This document shows positions 25,129 through 53,738 of a DNA stretch of 64,000 nt, one piece after another (the first letter of the stretch is position 1; each line of letters opens with the position of its first letter). Both the position numbers and the translations under genes were made by a program. The notes below the pieces were generated by a model. That model was not told the DNA's origin and did no database searches. It saw only the letters and a program-made list of their open reading frames with translations. Origin of the DNA: Octopus sinensis (taxonomy: Eukaryota); assembly GCF_006345805.1 (NCBI RefSeq), contig NC_043003.1, positions 116,436,001 through 116,500,000 on the forward strand. The letters are read 5' to 3'.

Positions 25129-25209
<81 letters not shown>

Positions 25210-25354
25210 TAAGAGAGTGGTCACTATATGGCTCACTCTAGCACCAGTTAATCCAAAAGGTTTCAACCACGAAAATACATGTTTCCCATGAAAGTCAGTA
25301 CGATCGTTAGCTCACACGGACAGGGCAAATAAAAAATAACAAAAATACAGATTA

Positions 25355-25437
25355 TTTTGGGACAATTGTTTCGCTATTAATGAATTAAATGTAATTTTAC
25401 TTACAAAAAAAATCCATTTGTAGCTCGTCAGCCAAAA
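25355..25437 (-). ncRNA. Type I hammerhead ribozyme (intact core)
   Basis: Reverse complement reads TTTTGG CTGACGA GCTA..TAGC GAAA CAATTG TC^CCAAAA. Confidence 0.85.
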
Positions 25438-25888
25438 CTATCTGGATGAAATCCACTCAATCACACGCCAGATTTTACCATAACGATAAATACGCGTGTG
25501 GTTCAATTGATTACATCCGACGTTATAATTCAAATGCCCCAACTAACAGCGCGCCAAACTTTCACGGAAAACAAATACAGCATTTAGAAATAAATGCAGC
25601 ATAATTATAATTAATTAATAAGGGTGAGAGAATTAGATACTAATTTAATAGTAATCTATTCAACACCAAGTGGCCTAGTGCTCCGAGAAACCTGAATATT
25701 ATAATATTTTATAACATATTATAATATTTTTACAAAATAAATATAAGAGAGTGGTCACTATATGGCTCACTCTAGCACCAGTTAATCCAAAAGGTTTCAA
25801 CCACGAAAATACATGTTTCCCATGAAAGTCAGTACGATTGTTAGCTCACACGGACAGGGCAAATAAAAAATAACAAAAATACAGATTA

Positions 25889-25970
25889 TTTTGGACAATT
25901 GTTTCGCTATTAATGAATTAAATGTAATTTTACTTACAAAAAAAATCCATTTGTAGCTCGTCAGCCAAAA
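25889..25970 (-). ncRNA. Type I hammerhead ribozyme (one C missing at the cleavage site/stem I)
   Basis: Same motif, GTCCAAAA instead of GTCCCAAAA. Confidence 0.7.
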
Positions 25971-26674
25971 CTATCTGGATGAAATCCACTCAATCACACG
26001 CCAGATTTTACCATAACGATAAATACGCGTGTGGTTCAATTGATTACATCCGACGTTATAATTCAAATGCCCCAACTAACAGCGCGCCAAACTTTCACGG
26101 AAAACAAATACAGCATTTAGAAATAAATGCAGCATAATTATAATTAATTAATAAGGGTGAGAGAATAGATACTAATTTAATAGTATATCTATTCAACACC
26201 AAGTGGCCTAGTGCTCCGAGAAACCTGGATTATTATAATATTTATAAACATATTAGAATATTTTTACAAAATACATATAAGAGAGTGGTCACTATATGGC
26301 TCACTCTAGCACCAGTTAATCAAAAGATAACTGGTGCTAGAGTGAGCCATATAGTGACCACTCTCTTATATTATTTTGTAAAAATATTATAATATGTTAT
26401 AAAATATTATAATAATCCAGGTTTCTCGGAGCACTAGGCCACTTGGTGTTGAATCGATATACTATTAAATTAGTATCTAATTCTCTCACCTTATTAATTA
26501 ATTATAATTATGCTGCATTTATTTCTAAATGCTGTATTTGTTTTCCGTGAAAGTTTGGCGCGCTGTTAGTTGGGGCATTTGAATTATAACGTCGGATGTA
26601 ATCAATTGAACCACACGCGTATTTATCGTTATGGTAAAATCTGGCGTGTGATTGAGTGGATTTCATCCAGATAG

Positions 26675-26758
26675 TTTTGGCTGACGAGCTACAAATGGAT
26701 TTTTTTTTGTAAGTAAAATTACATTTAATTCATTAATAGCGAAACAATTGTCCCAAAA
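26675..26758 (+). ncRNA. Type I hammerhead ribozyme (intact core)
   Basis: Stem I TTTTGG/CCAAAA; CTGACGA 26681-26687; stem II GCTA/TAGC; GAAA 26741-26744; palindromic stem III ACAATTGT; GTC triplet 26750-26752. Confidence 0.88.
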
Positions 26759-27205
26759 TAATCTGTATTTTGTTATTTTTTATTTGCCCTGTCCGTGTGA
26801 GCTAACGATCGTACTGACTTTCATGGGAACATGTATTTTCGTGGTTGAAACCTTTTGGATTAACTGGTGCTAGAGTGAGCCATATAGTGACCACTCTCTT
26901 ATATTTATTTTGTAAAAAATTATAATATGTTATAAAATATTATATAATCCAGGTTTCTCGGAGCACTAGGCCACTTGGTGTTGAATAGATATACTATTAA
27001 ATTAGTATCTATCTCTCCACCCTTATTAATTAATTATAATTATGCTGCATTTATTTCTAAATGCTGTATTTGTTTTCCGTGAAAGTTTGGCGCGCTGTTA
27101 GTTGGGGCATTTGAATTATAACGTCGGATGTAATCAATGAACCACACGCGTATTTATCGTTATGGTAAAATCTGGCGTGTGATTGAGTGGATTTCATCCA
27201 GATAG

Positions 27206-27290
27206 TTTTGGCTGACGAGCTACAAATGGATTTTTTTGTAAGTAAAATTACATTTAATTCATAATAGCGTAGCGAACCAATTGTCCAAAA
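27206..27290 (+). ncRNA. Hammerhead copy with GAAC for GAAA and a small duplication
   Basis: CTGACGA intact; TAGCGTAGCGAACCAATTGTCCAAAA. Confidence 0.55.
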
Positions 27291-27743
27291 TAATCTGTGT
27301 TTTTGGTATTTTTTTATTGCCCTGTCCGTGTGAGCTAACGATCGTACTGACTTTCATGGGAAACATGTATTTTTTGTGGTTGAAACCTTTTGGATTAACT
27401 GGTGCTAGAGTGAGCCATATAGTGACCACTCTCTTATATTTATTTTGTAAAAATATATAATATGTTATAAAATATTATAATAATCCAGGTTTCTCGGAGC
27501 ACTAGGCCACTTGGTGTTGAATAGATATACTATTAAATTAGTATATAATTCTCTCACCCTTATTAATTAATTATAATTATGCTGCATTTATTTCTAAATG
27601 CTGTATTTGTTTTCGTGAAAAGTTTGGCGCGCTGTTAGTTGGGGCATTTGAATTATAACGTCGGATGTAATCAATTGAACCACACGCGTATTTATCGTTA
27701 TGGTAAAATCTGGCGTGTGATTGAGTGGATTTCATCCAGATAG

Positions 27744-27827
27744 TTTTGGCTGACGAGCTACAAATGGATTTTTTTTTGTAAGTAAAATTACATTTAATTC
27801 ATTAATAGCGAAACAATTGTCCCAAAA
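27744..27827 (+). ncRNA. Type I hammerhead ribozyme (intact core)
   Basis: Same as 26675-26758; GTC at 27819-27821. Confidence 0.88.
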
Positions 27828-28275
27828 TAATCTGTATTTTTGTTATTTTTTATTTGCCCTGTCCGTGTGAGCTAACGATCGTACTGACTTTCATGGGAAA
27901 CATGTATTTTCGTGGTTGAAACCTTTTGGATTAACTGGTGCTAGAGTGAGCCATATAGTGACCACTCTCTTATATTTATTTTGTAAAAATATTATAATAT
28001 GTTAAAATATATAATAATCCAGGTTTCTCGGAGCACTAGGCCACTTGTTTTGATAGATATACTATTAAATTAGTATCTAATTCTCTCACCCTTATTAATT
28101 AATTATAATTATGCTGCATTTATTTCTAAATGCTGTATTTGTTTTCCGTGAAAGTTTGGCGCGCTGTTAGTTGGGGCATTTGAATTATAACGTCGGATGT
28201 AATCAATTGAACCACACGCGTATTTATCGTTATGGTAAAATCTGGCGTGTGATTGAGTGGATTTCATCCAGATAG

Positions 28276-28356
28276 TTTTGGGACGAGCTACAAATGGATT
28301 TTTTTTGTAAGTAAAATTACATTTAATTCATTAATAGCGAAACAATTGTCCCAAAA
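28276..28356 (+). ncRNA. Hammerhead copy with damaged core (CT missing from CTGACGA)
   Basis: TTTTGGGACGAGCTA; 3' half intact. Confidence 0.5.
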
Positions 28357-28800
28357 TAATCTGTATTTTTGTTATTTTTTATTTGCCCTGTCCGTGTGAG
28401 CTAACGATCGTACTGACTTTCATGGGAACATGATTTTCGTGGTTGAAACCTTTTGGATTAACTGGTGCTAGAGTGAGCCATATAGTGACCACTCTCTTAT
28501 ATTATTTTGTAAAAATATATATATGTTATAAAATATTATAATAATCCAGGTTTCTCGGAGCACTAGGCCACTGGTGTTGAATAGATATACTATTAAATTA
28601 GTATCTAATTCTCTCACCTTATTAATTAATTATAATTATGCTGCATTTATTTCTAAATGCTGTATTTGTTTTCCGTGAAAGTTTGGCGCGCTGTTAGTTG
28701 GGGCATTTGAATTATAACGTCGGATGTAATCAATTGAACCACACGCGTATTTCGTTATGGTAAAATCTGGCGTGTGATTGAGTGGATTTCATCCAGATAG

Positions 28801-28883
28801 TTTTGGCTGACGAGCTACAAATGGATTTTTTTTTGTAAGTAAAATTACATTTAATTCATTAATAGCGAAACAATTGTCCAAAA
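28801..28883 (+). ncRNA. Hammerhead copy (core intact, one C missing after GTC)
   Basis: TTTTGGCTGACGAGCTA...TAGCGAAACAATTGTCCAAAA. Confidence 0.7.
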
Positions 28884-29330
28884 TAATCTGTATTTTTGTT
28901 ATTTTTTATTGCCCTGTCCGTGTGAGCTAACGATCGTACTGACTTTCATGGGAAACATGTTTTTCGTGGTTGAAACCTTTGGATTAACTGGTGCTAGAGT
29001 GAGCCATATAGTGACCACTCTCTTATATTTATTTTGTAAAAATATTATAATATGTTATAAAATATTATAATAATCCAGGTTTCTCGGAGCACTAGGCCAC
29101 TGGTGTTGAATAGATATACTATTAAATTAGTATCTAATTCTCTCACCCTTATTAATTAATTATAATTATGCTGCATTTATTTCTAAATGCTGTATTTGTT
29201 TTCCGTGAAAGTTTGGCGCGCTGTTAGTTGGGGCATTTGAATATAACGTCGGATGTAATCAATTGAACCACACGCGTATTTATCGTTATGGTAAAATCTG
29301 GCGTGTGATGAGTGGATTTCATCCAGATAG

Positions 29331-29412
29331 TTTTGGCTGACGAGCTACAAATGGATTTTTTTTTGTAAGTAAAATTACATTTAATTCATTAATAGCGAAA
29401 CAATTGTCCAAA
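29331..29412 (+). ncRNA. Hammerhead copy (core intact, stem I shortened)
   Basis: TTTTGGCTGACGAGCTA...TAGCGAAACAATTGTCCAAAT. Confidence 0.65.
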
Positions 29413-29859
29413 TAAATCTGTATTTTTGTTTTTTTATTTGCCTGTCCGTGTGAGCTAACGATCGTACTGACTTTCATGGGAAACATGTATTTTCGTGGTT
29501 GAAACCTTTTGGATTAACTGGTGCTAGAGTGAGCCATATAGTGACCACTCTCTTATATTTATTTTGTAAATATTATAATATGTTATAAAAATATTATAAT
29601 CAGGTTTCTCGGAGCACTAGGCCACTTGGTGTTGAATAGATATACTATTAAATTAGTATCTAATTCTCTCACCCTTATTAATTAATTATAATTATGCTGC
29701 ATTATTTCTAAATGCTGTATTTGTTTTCCGTGAAAGTTTGGCGCGCGTTAGTAGTTGGGGCATTTGAATTATAACGTCGGATGTAATCAATTGAACCACA
29801 CGCGTATTTATCGTTATGGTAAAATCTGGCGTGTGATTGAGTGGATTTCATCCAGATAG

Positions 29860-29942
29860 TTTTGGCTGACGAGCTACAAATGGATTTTTTTTGTAAGTAA
29901 AATTACATTTAATTCATTAATAGCGAAACAATTGTCCCAAAA
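29860..29942 (+). ncRNA. Type I hammerhead ribozyme (intact core)
   Basis: CTGACGA 29866-29872; GTC 29934-29936; CCAAAA 29937-29942. Confidence 0.88.
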
Positions 29943-30387
29943 TAATCTGTATTTTTGTTATTTTTTATTTGCCCTGTCCGTGTGAGCTAACGATCGTACT
30001 GACTTTCATGGGAAACATGTATTTTCGTGGTTGAAACCTTTGGATTAACTGGTGCTAGAGTGAGCCATATAGTGACCACTCTCTTATATTATTTTGTAAA
30101 AATATATAATATGTTATAAAATATTATAATAATCCAGGTTTCTCGGAGCACTAGGCCACTTGGTGTTGAATAGATATACTATTAAATAGTATCTAATTCT
30201 CTCCCCTTATTAATTAATTATAAATGCTGCATTTATTTCTAAATGCTGTATTTGTTTTCCGTGAAAGTTGGCGCGCTGTTAGTTGGGGCATTTGAATTAT
30301 AACGTCGGATGTAATCAATTGAACCACACGCGTATTTATCGTTATGGTAAAATCTGGCGTGTGATTGAGTGGATTTCATCCAGATAG

Positions 30388-30465
30388 TTTTGGGACTGAG
30401 CTACAAATGGATTTTTTTGTAAGAAATTACAATTAATTCATTAATAGCGAAACAATTGTCCCAAA
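30388..30465 (+). ncRNA. Hammerhead copy with damaged core
   Basis: TTTTGGGACTGAGCTA; GAAACAATTGTCCCAAA retained. Confidence 0.5.
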
Positions 30466-30910
30466 TAATCTGTTATTTGTTATTTTTTATTTGCCCTGTC
30501 CGTGAGCTAACGATCGTACTGACTTTCATGGGAAACATGTATTTCGTGGTTGAAACCTTTTGGATTAACTGGTGCTAGAGTGAGCCATATAGTGACCACT
30601 CTCTTATATTTATTTTGTAAAAATATTATATATGTTATAAAATATTATAATAATCCAGGTTTCTCGGAGCACTAGGCCACTTGGTGTTGAATAGATATAC
30701 TATTAATTAGTATCTAATTCTCTCACCCTTATTAATTAATTATAATTATGCTGCATTATTTCTAAATGCTGTATTGTTTTCCGTGAAAGTTTGGCGCGTT
30801 GTTAGTTGGGGCATTTGAATTATAACGTCGGATGTAATCAATTGAACCACACGCGTATTTATCGTTATGGTAAAATCTGGCGTGTGATTGAGTGGATTTC
30901 ATCCAGATAG

Positions 30911-30992
30911 TTTTGGCTGACGAGCTACAAATGGATTTTTTTTGTAAGTAAAATTACATTAATTCATTAATAGCGAAACAATTGTCCCAAAA
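30911..30992 (+). ncRNA. Type I hammerhead ribozyme (intact core)
   Basis: CTGACGA 30917-30923; GTC 30984-30986; CCAAAA 30987-30992. Confidence 0.88.
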
Positions 30993-31283
30993 TATTCTGT
31001 ATTTTTGTTATTTTTTATTTGCCCTGTCCGTGTGAGCTAACGATCGTACTGACTTTCATGGGAAACATGTATTTTCGTGGTTGAAACCTTTTGGATTAAC
31101 TGGTGCTAGAGTGAGCCATATAGTGACCACTCTCTTATATTTATTTTGTAAAAATATTATAATATGTTATAAAATATTATAATAATCCAGGTTTCTCGGA
31201 GCACTAGGCCACTTGGTGTTGAATAGATATACTATTAAATTAGTATCAATTCTCTCACCCTTATTAATTAATTATATATATAT

Positions 31284-31318
<35 letters not shown>

Positions 31319-31473: not shown

Positions 31474-31649
31474 TACATTCATATATACGGTCATGAATAC
31501 ATATATATATATATATGAATAAATGAAAGAATGGAGTCGAACGAAGATGTTAACAAGATTCCTTTACTTACTCTGACGTGAATTTGCTACCCAGGTTTCG
31601 GTTAAACGAAGTTTCCATGCTGACGATAAACATAGGATAATTCATTCAC

Positions 31650-31697
<48 letters not shown>

Positions 31698-49348: not shown

Positions 49349-49818
49349 TCATCATCATCATTGTTCGACCGTGGTCGAGACAATGGAATTTACCATGCTA
49401 CGCCAGACTTCACGGTCCATCATGGCATTACGGAGGTCCTGTTGCTGGATGCCTGTATCCCTGGAGATTACATCAGGGTAGGAGAGTGTGCGCCCTCTGG
49501 TATTGCGAGTAGATGGCTTCCAGAGGAGAAGAGTAGAAATTACCTCTTTTTCAGCTCTACAATAATGTCCAGCAAACTGGACTCTCTTACCTTTCACAAG
49601 AGATGACACAGGTGGTAGTTTCCCATATATTTGCATTTTGGTTGGATGGCGCTTCCACGAGAGATTTTGAGCTCTCATAAGGAGGCGAGTGTAGGTTCCA
49701 TCAAACCGCCTCTCAAGCTTCTTTGATAACGTCCAGGTTTCTGAGCCATATAGTAGAATTGGTTCGACTGTGGTTTTGAAGATTTCAAGATGGAAGTCTC
49801 TACTTAGATTTGAGAGAC
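49349..49818 (-). mobile_element. 5'-truncated RTE LINE with open frame
   Basis: FKTTVEPILLYGSETWTLSKKLERRFDGTYTRLL...FAGH.CR...MMDREVWR; (GAT)n tail; TSD TTGACAAG(A/T)GGA at 49337-49348 and 49819-49830. Confidence 0.88.
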
Positions 49819-50879
49819 TTGACAAGTGGAACCTGCGTTCATATTCTACTTCAAACTCGAATTTTTGCTCCTTTAATTTCATATTGGTTTTAAGTCTGCG
49901 TTCTGCTTTTCACTAAAACTGCATTTGCCAACTTGATTTTCAAAGTCCATCACTCCATGTTTAAATGTCCTCTGAAGCTCTACTCAAAAGCGTATTTGTT
50001 ACCGGAGGCGAGGGTTTATTTGTCTGATAATTCTTAGAAGAGCTAAAAAAATTTCTCCATCAGAGTAAAGAAAACAGATGTAGTTTATAACTATTTCAGA
50101 CCCCAGAAACTGCTGTAAGTCATAGATTTTATAGATATATAATCAGTTTCATTATCTGAATATAGACGTCTGTAGACAAACGTGTGCTGGAAGGAAAATT
50201 GTAGAGTCTAATAAAGAATACTGGGCAACCTGCTTTCAATAAATCAAAGAAATGGTAAAAATACAGTTGCAAGAGATATATTCTACACCCTGTAGAATAC
50301 CATCATTACTGTGAGCTCATTGCCCACGGCGCTCAGGGTAAATATAAATAATAATCTAGTTGATGTTATGAATAAAGTAATGTTCTTAAGATGTTGTGAA
50401 AATTAAATGTTTCACATTTAATCGTTAAATTACTCTAGTATTAAGTAGTTGAAGTATATTCGGTACTTCAGTGAAATTTAGAGAACCCAGGGGAAAAAAT
50501 TCATAGTATGCGTATTCAATCTATCATATCTTGAGGTTGTTTAGAATGCTTTAGAAATGATGGAAAGGTATGAATTATTATCAGGTTACTGATGTTAAGA
50601 AAGTGAAGAATAAAATAGAAATTATCAATGGGAGGTACTAGATAACTAAGTTCTATCAAAACTCCGGGGTGTTAGAACATAAAATCTAAAAGCATCTTCC
50701 ATGCCTATATCTTCAAGAATCAGAGTGCATCCTGAGGGCATTTATTGGGGAAAGTAACAGAAATAAATTATAGTTGGCTAAGAGAAATGTAGAAATATAC
50801 ACAAAACGCCAGAACAGATACGTACACAGAAATAGATATTTACACAGATTTAGAGAAAGAAAACGTATGAGAAACTACA

Positions 50880-51640: not shown

Positions 51641-51670
51641 AAGCCTTCCGTCTTCGCATATCCACGCGTC

Positions 51671-52000
51671 TTCACATGGCCATTGCCTTCACATGGTCAC
51701 TACCTTCACATGGCCATTGCCTTCACATGGTCACTACCTTCACATGGCCATTGCCTTCACATGGTCACTACCTTCACATGGCCATTGCCTTCACATGGTC
51801 ACTACCTTCACATGGCCATTGCCTTCACATGGTCACTACCTTCACATGGCCATTGCCTTCACATGGTCACTACCTTCACATGGCCATTGCCTTCACATGG
51901 ACACTACCTTCACATGGCCATTGCCTTCACATGGTCACTACCTTCACATGGCCATTGCCTTCACATGGTCACTACCTTCACATGGCCATTGCCTTCACAT
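51671..52000. repeat. 34-bp minisatellite made of two alternating 17-mers (~9.7 copies)
   Basis: TTCACATGGCCATTGCC alternates with TTCACATGGTCACTACC; nearly perfect. Confidence 0.95.
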
Positions 52001-52190: not shown

Positions 52191-53738
52191 CACGGCGTCC
52201 TACCTTATTAGGCAAATCAAACTTCTCTCAATAAATAAATGTACATTCGTTCAAAACCAGTTGTTTTCCCACTGACTGTTGGCAATACCTATCTGCGCAC
52301 GTTTTGTTAAAACAATTCGGATCTTCACAGAAGAAGCAAACGGCCACCATTATCATGAAGCAGTAACAGTTATGGAGTCCCAAACTATTAGGCAGGTGCT
52401 CAATTTAAGTGTCATTATGGGTCAGAAATGCGATCTTACCTTGAATGAGAAGTCTATCATCGTGTCAAAACTTAGGAAAAGAAAAAAAGCCATAGAAATA
52501 TCAAAAAACTGGGAAGAGATCATCAAAGAGTGAAGACATTTGTGTAGTCTCCTATAAAAGGACAAGTCGAGGGTTGCTTTGAACCGTATTTTGTCACGTG
52601 TGAAAAGGGAAGTCGTACGGAACCCATGTTTGACAAGTGAAGAAATCTTCAAACTTTGTGGCAGCGAAGACGTATCGAAGACTACCAGGTGTCACCCTAT
52701 GATGCAAGTAGCCAGGAATGTTAAACATGTTACAAGGCCCCCTCTGAAGGCTGTTCATAAGCAGAAGAGACTGAAATTGGCAGAAGAATACATGAAAATA
52801 GGCTTTTCAAAAGGTCTGCTCACTGACGAATGCCGCGCTACCCTTGATGAACCAGATGGCTGCAGGAAATGTCGGGTATCAATCAATGGAAACCGTCCTC
52901 ATCGTTTGAGACGCCAACAGGGGGAGTTGGGGTTATGTTTTGGGCTGGCATCGTTGGTCTGGCATCCTTGGTCCCAAATTGCATTAAGATAACATAGAAA
53001 ACATACTTTCTTAATGTCCAACCGTGTTTCAAAAGGCAAACACTTTCAATTCAAAAGAAATCTGGTCTTCGTGCAAAATAATGCCCGTGCCACGCAGCGA
53101 AAAATTCTAAGGAATACCTGCCGCAAACAGGCTTCTCTGGAGATCGTTTGATGGCATGGCTACCTTGTTCCACTGATTTAAACCCAATCGAGAACCTATG
53201 GAGTGTTCTGAAGAGGCGCGTTTACCAAGATGAACGACAGTTTTCGTGTAAAGTTTCCCTCTAGGTTGCTATTGTAGATGCTGCTCAAAATATGACACAA
53301 GAGGATATCATCACCTTGTTAAATTCAAAAGATCAGCGTGTAAGGAAGGTTATTGCTTGTGGAGAGCCATACAGCAAACATTAAGAGTTGTATGACATAA
53401 TAATCGCATGATTATTTTCATTGCGACGTGTTATTATGTGTACCATTAAATCCTTTATGGATGACATTTGTCAAACCTTTGCTGTTGAATTAAATAAATG
53501 TTTGTTCTGACACAATGACTATTTTTTTTATTCTTGCCTAATAATTTGTGACGGTGAAAATATTGCCCAGTCACAAAAATGGCCGCCATTTGTTGGCGTC
53601 TGCGCAGATCCGATTTATTGTAACAAAATGTGCATAGATAGTTTTCGCCAACAGTCCGTGGGAAAACAACTGATTTTGAACAAATATACATTTATTTATT
53701 AAGAGAGGGTTGATTTGTCTAATATGTGAAACGCAGTA
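52191..53738 (+). mobile_element. Tc1-family DNA transposon, full length but decayed
   Basis: TA flanks; ~170-210-bp TIRs. Transposase from ATG 52417 (MGQKCDLT..) with TDECRATLDEPDG, QNNA (QDNA-like) and STDLNPIENLWSVLKRRV; frameshifts and stops. Confidence 0.88.

Follow-up and report, generated by a model that had tools for sequence, protein, structure and literature searches.

A hammerhead retrozyme array in Octopus sinensis as a probable two-armed insertion mobilised by a Penelope-like element

We analysed a 64,000-nt stretch of the Octopus sinensis genome (assembly GCF_006345805.1, contig NC_043003.1, positions 116,436,001 to 116,500,000 of the forward strand; hereafter the window), in which an array of a non-coding unit of about 535 bp, each bearing a hammerhead ribozyme motif, occupies positions 25201 to 31276. 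The unit belongs to a real, young and dispersed family of retrozymes lacking long terminal repeats (non-LTR retrozymes), which we name R1. We read the array as one retrotransposition event of R1, mobilised in trans by the reverse transcriptase (RT)-endonuclease of a Penelope-like element (PLE), and put the probability of this reading at about 0.65; that R1 is moved by PLE-type machinery of some kind is very likely. R1 insertions bear the PLE insertion signature: a head-to-head inverted, 5′-truncated copy, a tail at one end, and a (TA)n target. A first-pass annotation of the window had proposed a retrozyme copied by a Penelope-type RT in trans, and this identification is well supported by the dispersed clonal insertions, the PLE-type tail and inversion, the (TA)n target, and a PLE family that follows the same end rule.

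The array comprises about 11.4 copies of the unit at 93–96% identity to one unit, flanked on both sides by (TA)n, as the first-pass annotation had described. Its description of a tandem array held for the repetition of the units, but not for their orientation: the array is not head-to-tail throughout, and consists of two arms in opposite orientation that diverge from an inversion near 26326. This inversion and the two fixed outer ends, which the annotation missed, are the most informative features of the locus (unit positions are numbered from the base after the predicted cut, in the natural copy L022):

25163 to 25200: (TA)n target microsatellite, left flank
25201 to 26326, minus strand: B arm, about 2.1 units (measured 1132 nt); outer end B at unit position ~161, without tail
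26312 to 26334: head-to-head inversion junction, near-palindromic; inner ends at unit positions 102 and 111
26328 to 31276, plus strand: A arm, 9.3 units (measured 4997 nt); outer end A at unit position 291, with 130-nt tail
31277 to 31318: (TA)n target microsatellite, right flank

The left and right flanks of the array differ in sequence from each other, and both ends lie within (TA)n, masking any target-site duplication longer than 4 bp. The array overlaps no open reading frame (ORF) of at least 120 aa, and tblastn against PLE proteins gave no match below E = 1 for it among the matches listed. The GC content is 0.32–0.33, i.e., below 50%, and the monomer is highly structured (folding z = −8.5, with 0/100 shuffles folding as well; 68% paired when folded as a circle). 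Indel columns number about 3 per unit across the R1 family, and the window units are noisy; a variant private to this locus, A56G, is present in 10 of 11 units. Among R1 insertions, the window array is a long example.

Other copies, which the first-pass annotation had suggested seeking genome-wide, were abundant in the 2.72-Gb assembly. The R1 unit was found dispersed (233 matches, from 40 of 870 candidates), and exact junctions into (TA)n numbered 564 for the A end and 252 for the B end, whereas the reversed end patterns used as controls gave 0 in each case. Arm ends are fixed at unit positions ~161 (B) and 291 (A), 130 nt apart. Across 67 two-armed insertions, 61 were A+B and 6 had one irregular end; neither A+A nor B+B occurred. 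These come from two samples. The first, the 39 best-hit loci with the window included, held 29 two-armed insertions (28 A+B, 1 B with an irregular end) and 10 one-armed ones (5 A, 5 B), L033 being a duplicate of L032. The second consisted of the first 60 listed A junctions outside sample 1, of which 38 had an inverted arm (33 ending at B, 5 irregular, 0 at A, as read by eye; 34, 4 and 0, respectively, under a looser automatic rule), 20 had none, and 2 ran off the fetched stretch; B+B was detectable in sample 1 only. Where no inverted arm was present, the 5′ flank was TA-rich in 18 of 22 loci, and 2 of the other 4 ran off the fetched stretch. The A arm has a median of 460 nt, with 6/59 longer than three units; the inversion point varies between insertions, and the two arm lengths are uncorrelated (rho 0.03, 28 insertions). 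As a separate observation, L032/L033 and L158/L159 are near-identical insertions with the same junction, 9–27 kb apart, and are segmental or assembly duplicates.

Both arms of an insertion carry one template haplotype, and long arrays are clonal. We compared variants within 97 loci (L033 and L159 removed as duplicates; AT tract 158–200, T run and first 8 positions masked). Variant events were fixed in all covering units in 249 cases, mixed in 21, and confined to a single unit in 153; the single-unit variants are transversion-rich and are probably mostly assembly noise. In the 65 two-armed loci, the arms agreed at 131/137 informative sites, whereas 2000 shuffled arm pairings gave 88% discordance with a minimum of 75%. 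Private variants of L037 (8/8 units) and L053 (4/4 units) are fixed over both arms, and L044 carries three, each in 13–14 of 13–14 units.

Among inherited variants, A>G was also mildly more frequent than T>C on the ribozyme strand, a possible imprint of RNA editing (11 vs 2 in the first 39 loci; 19 vs 11 in 97 loci, p = 0.013, unpolarised; 12 vs 9 among variants common to both arms, not significant). We do not claim an A-to-I editing imprint: the signal shrank with more loci, and no clear neighbour preference emerged. A>G differences in contigs from other public sequencing runs were inseparable from subfamily alleles.

Two control families were evaluated for the same anatomy. R2 (L095–L114), recovered among 40 of 1128 candidates scored, is a sister retrozyme family with a 524-nt period, a GUA triplet and a 113-nt tail, its copies being ~90–96% alike; its alignment with R1 spans the whole unit, and 0/300 shuffles score as high. 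R2 is older than R1, and some of its copies have hammerhead cores with U4 changed to C (U4C). At 20 R2 loci we found 9 clear A+B insertions, one interrupted insertion (L104/L111) that is likewise A+B, two with B and an end short of A, and one irregular, the others being one-armed; A+A and B+B were absent from these 20. R3 is an autonomous PLE family of Hydra type, and it follows the same end rule as R1: of 30 A-anchored loci, 12 had a diverging arm, which ended at B in 10, near B in 2 and at A in 0 (a downstream piece at L189 was left out as a separate insertion). One R3 copy lies in its own (TA)n, 240 bp to the right of the window array, and belongs to a family different from R1:

31514 to 31658: miniature two-armed A+B insertion of the R3 3′ end; B arm 31514–31568 (minus strand), A arm 31572–31658 (plus strand)

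Elsewhere in the window, positions 60754–60960 (minus strand) hold a B-ended R3 3′ fragment with a hammerhead, 93% identical to the L085 copy. The R3 ORF (L205–L206) has an asparagine-rich insert between RT and endonuclease; inserts of that kind are described for rotifer Penelopes (PMC3846280; here and below, statements on the literature refer to those passages of each source that were covered).

We then consider the ribozyme itself. Motif inspection confirmed the 11 hammerhead sites of the first-pass annotation, five of them intact at the positions it had named; of the rest, three combine an intact core with a shorter stem I and three bear damage, chiefly small indels. A site was scored as intact on its core, stem II base, GAAAC-AATT-GUC and a 6-bp stem I. 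The motif is of type I, built from stem I (TTTTGG/CCAAAA), the core CUGACGA, a 51-nt stem II domain, GAAA, and a 2-bp stem III that lies within the palindrome ACAATTGT, the predicted cut following GUC. The five intact sites are as follows, the cut of the second lying exactly where the earlier annotation had placed it:

25355 to 25437, minus strand: intact type I hammerhead, predicted cut after 25361 on the minus strand
26675 to 26758, plus strand: intact type I hammerhead, predicted cut 26752/26753
27744 to 27827, plus strand: intact hammerhead, predicted cut after 27821
29860 to 29942, plus strand: intact hammerhead, predicted cut after 29936
30911 to 30992, plus strand: intact hammerhead, predicted cut after 30986

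The Rfam hammerhead models, the check that the first-pass annotation had put forward, gave no match at the gathering threshold over the whole window and none at E ≤ 10 over 26300–28500, probably owing to the length of the stem II domain (51 nt); we accordingly called hammerheads by inspecting motifs and by comparing R1 with the sister family. The core, the stem III palindrome and the inner hairpin of stem II are common to R1 and R2, whereas 5/6 stem I pairs differ on both sides between them (compensatory). Within R1, 14 loci show variation at N7, the unconstrained core position, whereas C3, A6, G8, G12, A13 and A14 are invariant in about 230–260 units. Judged by these substitution patterns, the ribozyme is under selection.

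The R1 insertion, without an ORF, is a PLE passenger and not an autonomous PLE. The genome carries many PLEs, of which two families, N1 and H2, look young. A search for drivers by their GIY-YIG endonuclease (150 of 5029 candidates scored) yielded the Neptune-type families N1 and N2. No autonomous element with the R1 unit as its terminal repeat, of the kind the first-pass annotation had envisaged, was found among N1, N2, R3 and H2. N1 (L079–L082, L087) is of Neptune type, ~4.8 kb long, with a 781-aa RT-endonuclease frame overlapped by an upstream 479-aa frame; its copies are ~99% alike and have a 17-nt stem II and a degenerate hammerhead core, with one 3′ end in the sample. N1 and N2 were rejected as parents of R1, their termini being unlike the R1 unit. 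N1 copies adjoin three arrays (L021, L032, L033), most likely because N1 and R1 both target (TA)n. H2 (L210–L213) is of Hydra type, with open frames of ~890–900 aa, a canonical hammerhead and a ~155-nt tail; its copies are 97–98% alike, and many score identically over the RT stretch searched.

In ribozyme geometry, R3 and H2 resemble R1 and R2: they have stem II domains of 54–55 nt, an 8-nt palindromic stem III and tails of ~145–155 nt; the corresponding stem II domains in R1 and R2 are 45–51 nt and the tails 113–130 nt. From this ribozyme geometry, the long tail and the target, and not from sequence homology, a Hydra-type PLE appears the somewhat favoured driver of R1. The Hydra-type label itself was assigned from motifs by eye against the description in PMC8557442 (no CCHH; CxxC and CxH around E and N), not from a tree, and Pfam recognised neither H2 nor R3. 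A protein atlas placed H2 near animal HTH/GIY-YIG clusters, which is a lead only. A gapped-pattern search returned solely R1/R2-like units among the matches listed, its gap bounds having left out most typical copies.

We propose the following course of events. Multimeric transcripts would self-cleave to 535-nt monomers, possibly as dimers via the palindromic stem III, and ligation would turn the monomers into circles. A PLE protein, which probably acts as a dimer, would bind the RNA at the tail region and cut both strands of the (TA)n target; each of the two DNA ends would then prime synthesis on the same RNA, one from site A and one from site B, and the number of rounds that each RT makes of the template would vary. 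Head-to-head joining of the two cDNA 3′ ends would follow, mostly blunt or with an overlap of a few bases, and loss or non-extension of one arm would leave a single 5′-truncated arm. In this scheme, twin priming on one template is likely, and a circular template is probable; the strictest version, with obligate asymmetric twin priming by a PLE dimer on one ribozyme-made circle and both subunits rolling, we hold as tentative, at a shade under even odds. A PLE protein, predicted to be a dimer, is reported to cut and extend both strands and to start at two internal RNA sites bounding the tail (PMC11167929).

Several observations weigh against this reading. In the same study, insertion did not require ribozyme cleavage and drew mainly on unprocessed RNA, and the strands did not differ in start site in vitro (PMC11167929); elsewhere, 8/9 predicted retrozyme dimers did not cleave (10.64898/2026.07.22.740005). 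The 130-nt R1 tail far exceeds the published 30–40 bp. Comparison of N1, N2, R3 and H2 with the R1 unit yielded shuffle-level scores or no BLAST match (shuffles scored as high in 31/300 cases for R1 vs R3 and 28/300 for R1 vs H2). A U4-to-C change in the core is present in 13/233 units at 6 loci, in both arms at L050, which suggests that some templates had a weakened ribozyme. Furthermore, the active junction is missing from the predicted minimum-energy fold, in which the core and the cleavage triplet pair with each other; this pairing may be an off-state protecting the circle, or a sign of poor activity. Finally, near-palindromic inversion junctions are in excess (12/58 vs 3.4 expected, p = 1e-4), which also fits a subset formed by fold-back.

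The nature of the template sets the proposed circle against its main rival, in which the same PLE twin priming acts on an uncleaved linear multimeric transcript of an existing array. The cut site is crossed by 46/58 A arms and 43/58 B arms, and inner ends coincide with the ribozyme cut in 5/116 cases vs 4.6 expected, i.e., without enrichment; the template was therefore a ligated circle or an uncleaved multimer, and not a cleaved linear monomer. Clonal source arrays would equally predict read-through of the cut site and clonal units, templates bearing U4C were inserted, and the in vitro preference for unprocessed RNA (PMC11167929) favours the linear multimer. However, linear copying only shortens arrays and would transmit a new mutation in one unit, whereas private variants are fixed over 8–14 units and fixed events far outnumber mixed ones (249 vs 21). 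Such fixation requires a one-unit bottleneck and re-expansion at some stage; the haplotype sample covers 97 of at least 564 insertions, and source arrays may lie outside it. Contigs from four other public runs, which we guess to be RNA, cover the R1 unit and extend across the tandem junction, and one contig of 565 nt is closed on itself, although such contigs can neither show transcription nor separate a circle from a multimer. The rolling reverse transcription of a circle claimed in the first-pass annotation is thus favoured by the fixed private variants, but not separated from an uncleaved multimeric template; we consider the linear multimer unlikely, at roughly one chance in five.

A second alternative holds that a single priming event was followed by fold-back or self-priming of the cDNA, the second end being set when an endonuclease resolved the product; cDNA self-priming has been proposed in PMC3846280 and endonuclease-mediated resolution in PMC8557442. 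This would account for the common haplotype and the head-to-head geometry, and the near-palindromic junctions, that of the window included, point the same way. Eight of the 12 are perfect hairpins apart from the tail; these may reflect fold-back in some insertions, or else two RTs that ran off a single broken end of the RNA, which would likewise give perfect hairpins. Inversion junctions are mostly blunt or overlap by a few bases. An arm copied from the other would have to fit inside it: among 58 A+B insertions with measured arms, the B arm could lie within the A arm in 25 and the A arm within the B arm in 11, while in the remaining 22 neither arm fits inside the other, so that neither was copied from the other there. 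In three of the insertions (L117, L148, L157) the arms do not overlap at all. Fold-back as the only mechanism is already contradicted by these cases, and as an account of the family it is improbable.

Less probable still is that unequal crossing-over expanded a solo PLE terminal repeat into a local satellite, a route suggested in 10.64898/2026.07.22.740005. The units are indeed tandem and homogeneous per locus, and long arms may have gained or lost units later; against this stand the hundreds of dispersed loci with the same two ends, the inverted arms that are often both multimeric (both longer than one unit in 25/58 A+B insertions), and the failure to find a parent PLE with the R1 unit among the four families compared. 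Least probable of all is an assembly expansion or a chimeric fold-back read, which the noisy window units might suggest and which may have put the exact copy number off; the flanks are different sequences, the A+B anatomy recurs at dozens of loci in three families, the locus-private variant spans 10/11 units, and the contigs of the four other runs bridge the tandem junction.

In twin priming of L1 elements, a 5′ inversion arises when the other target strand also serves as a primer on the same RNA, the second priming site being variable and homology-driven. In R1, in contrast, the two sites are fixed, and each of the two cDNAs can be longer than one unit. R1 resembles the metazoan non-LTR retrozymes of coral, mussel and axolotl/newt satellite 2 in its non-coding tandem units with one type I hammerhead each, a GC content below 50%, a highly self-paired monomer, and co-occurrence with PLEs; for R1, cleavage and circles are predicted. 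Its 535-nt monomer and 51-nt stem II domain depart from the retrozymes of PMC7229834 (about 170–400 nt), and the monomer falls within the 51–972 bp range of a recent preprint (10.64898/2026.07.22.740005). Non-LTR retrozymes and the circle model are presented in PMC7229834, PMC5680766 and PMC7761336, a passage of the last also touching on dimeric PLE hammerheads; the preprint suggests that retrozymes originated from PLEs and were amplified locally. Two-armed inverted insertions with fixed paired ends were not found in the passages covered of PMC7229834, where the word "inverted" has 0 matches, or of the preprint.

With endonuclease-bearing PLEs (PMC3846280, PMC8557442, PMC11167929), R1 shares the head-to-head inversion, the 5′ truncation, the tail at one end, the AT-rich or (TA)n target, and a type I hammerhead upstream of the 3′ ends; it differs in having no ORF, in both arms being multimeric, and in its longer tail. 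An inverted pseudo-LTR (pLTR) and an optional tail are described in PMC3846280 and PMC8557442. Whereas the PLE papers have the tail as optional or often at one end, R1 displays near-obligate A/B pairing and a common arm haplotype. The canonical hammerhead and (TA)n target are shared with Hydra-clade PLEs (PMC8557442), unlike DNA similarity, which does not exceed shuffles for R3 or H2. Chlamys/MRC1 are likewise non-autonomous PLE derivatives with multicopy head-to-tail insertions (PMC8557442), but are green algal and have 3′ sequence in common with their autonomous partners; most Chlamys lack canonical hammerheads, unlike R1. Our literature search, which covered main texts of open papers and not supplements or subscription papers, found neither an A/B pairing count nor a PLE twin-priming model and, with Repbase/Dfam also outside its scope, no octopus retrozyme and no two-armed retrozyme insertion. 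The non-LTR retrozyme is thus a known kind of element, whereas the two-armed anatomy of R1 and the twin-priming mechanism were not found in the literature searched.

Several further features lie outside this argument. At L023:3796–4331, contigs of other runs extend into diverged R1/R2-like sequence, and further related retrozyme families are probable. In the window, we take a frame at 49358–49909 (minus strand) to resemble the C-terminus of an RTE-type LINE (long interspersed nuclear element), and a frame at 52558–52992 (plus strand) presumably resembles a Tc1/mariner transposase fragment. A 34-bp minisatellite (9.7 copies, 99% match) lies at 51670–52000.

The origin of inverted, tailed, tandem PLE insertions is named as an open problem in PMC8557442 and PMC11167929, and it is likewise unsettled whether retrozyme arrays form at insertion or through amplification in place afterwards: copying of circles is proposed in PMC7229834, local amplification in 10.64898/2026.07.22.740005. 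The hundreds of young, short R1 insertions preserve, event by event, the two ends and the haplotype; in them, two start sites are seen to be used as a pair on one template haplotype, and the long arrays are clonal. An animal retrozyme is thereby tied to PLE machinery by mechanism, beyond co-occurrence, and the PLE insertion mechanism becomes testable in vitro on a 535-nt R1 RNA whose two start sites are mapped. If asymmetric twin priming is true, it would explain the PLE tail, the head-to-head inversion, the pseudo-LTR tandems and the animal retrozyme arrays, and the 535-nt elements would provide a compact natural test substrate.

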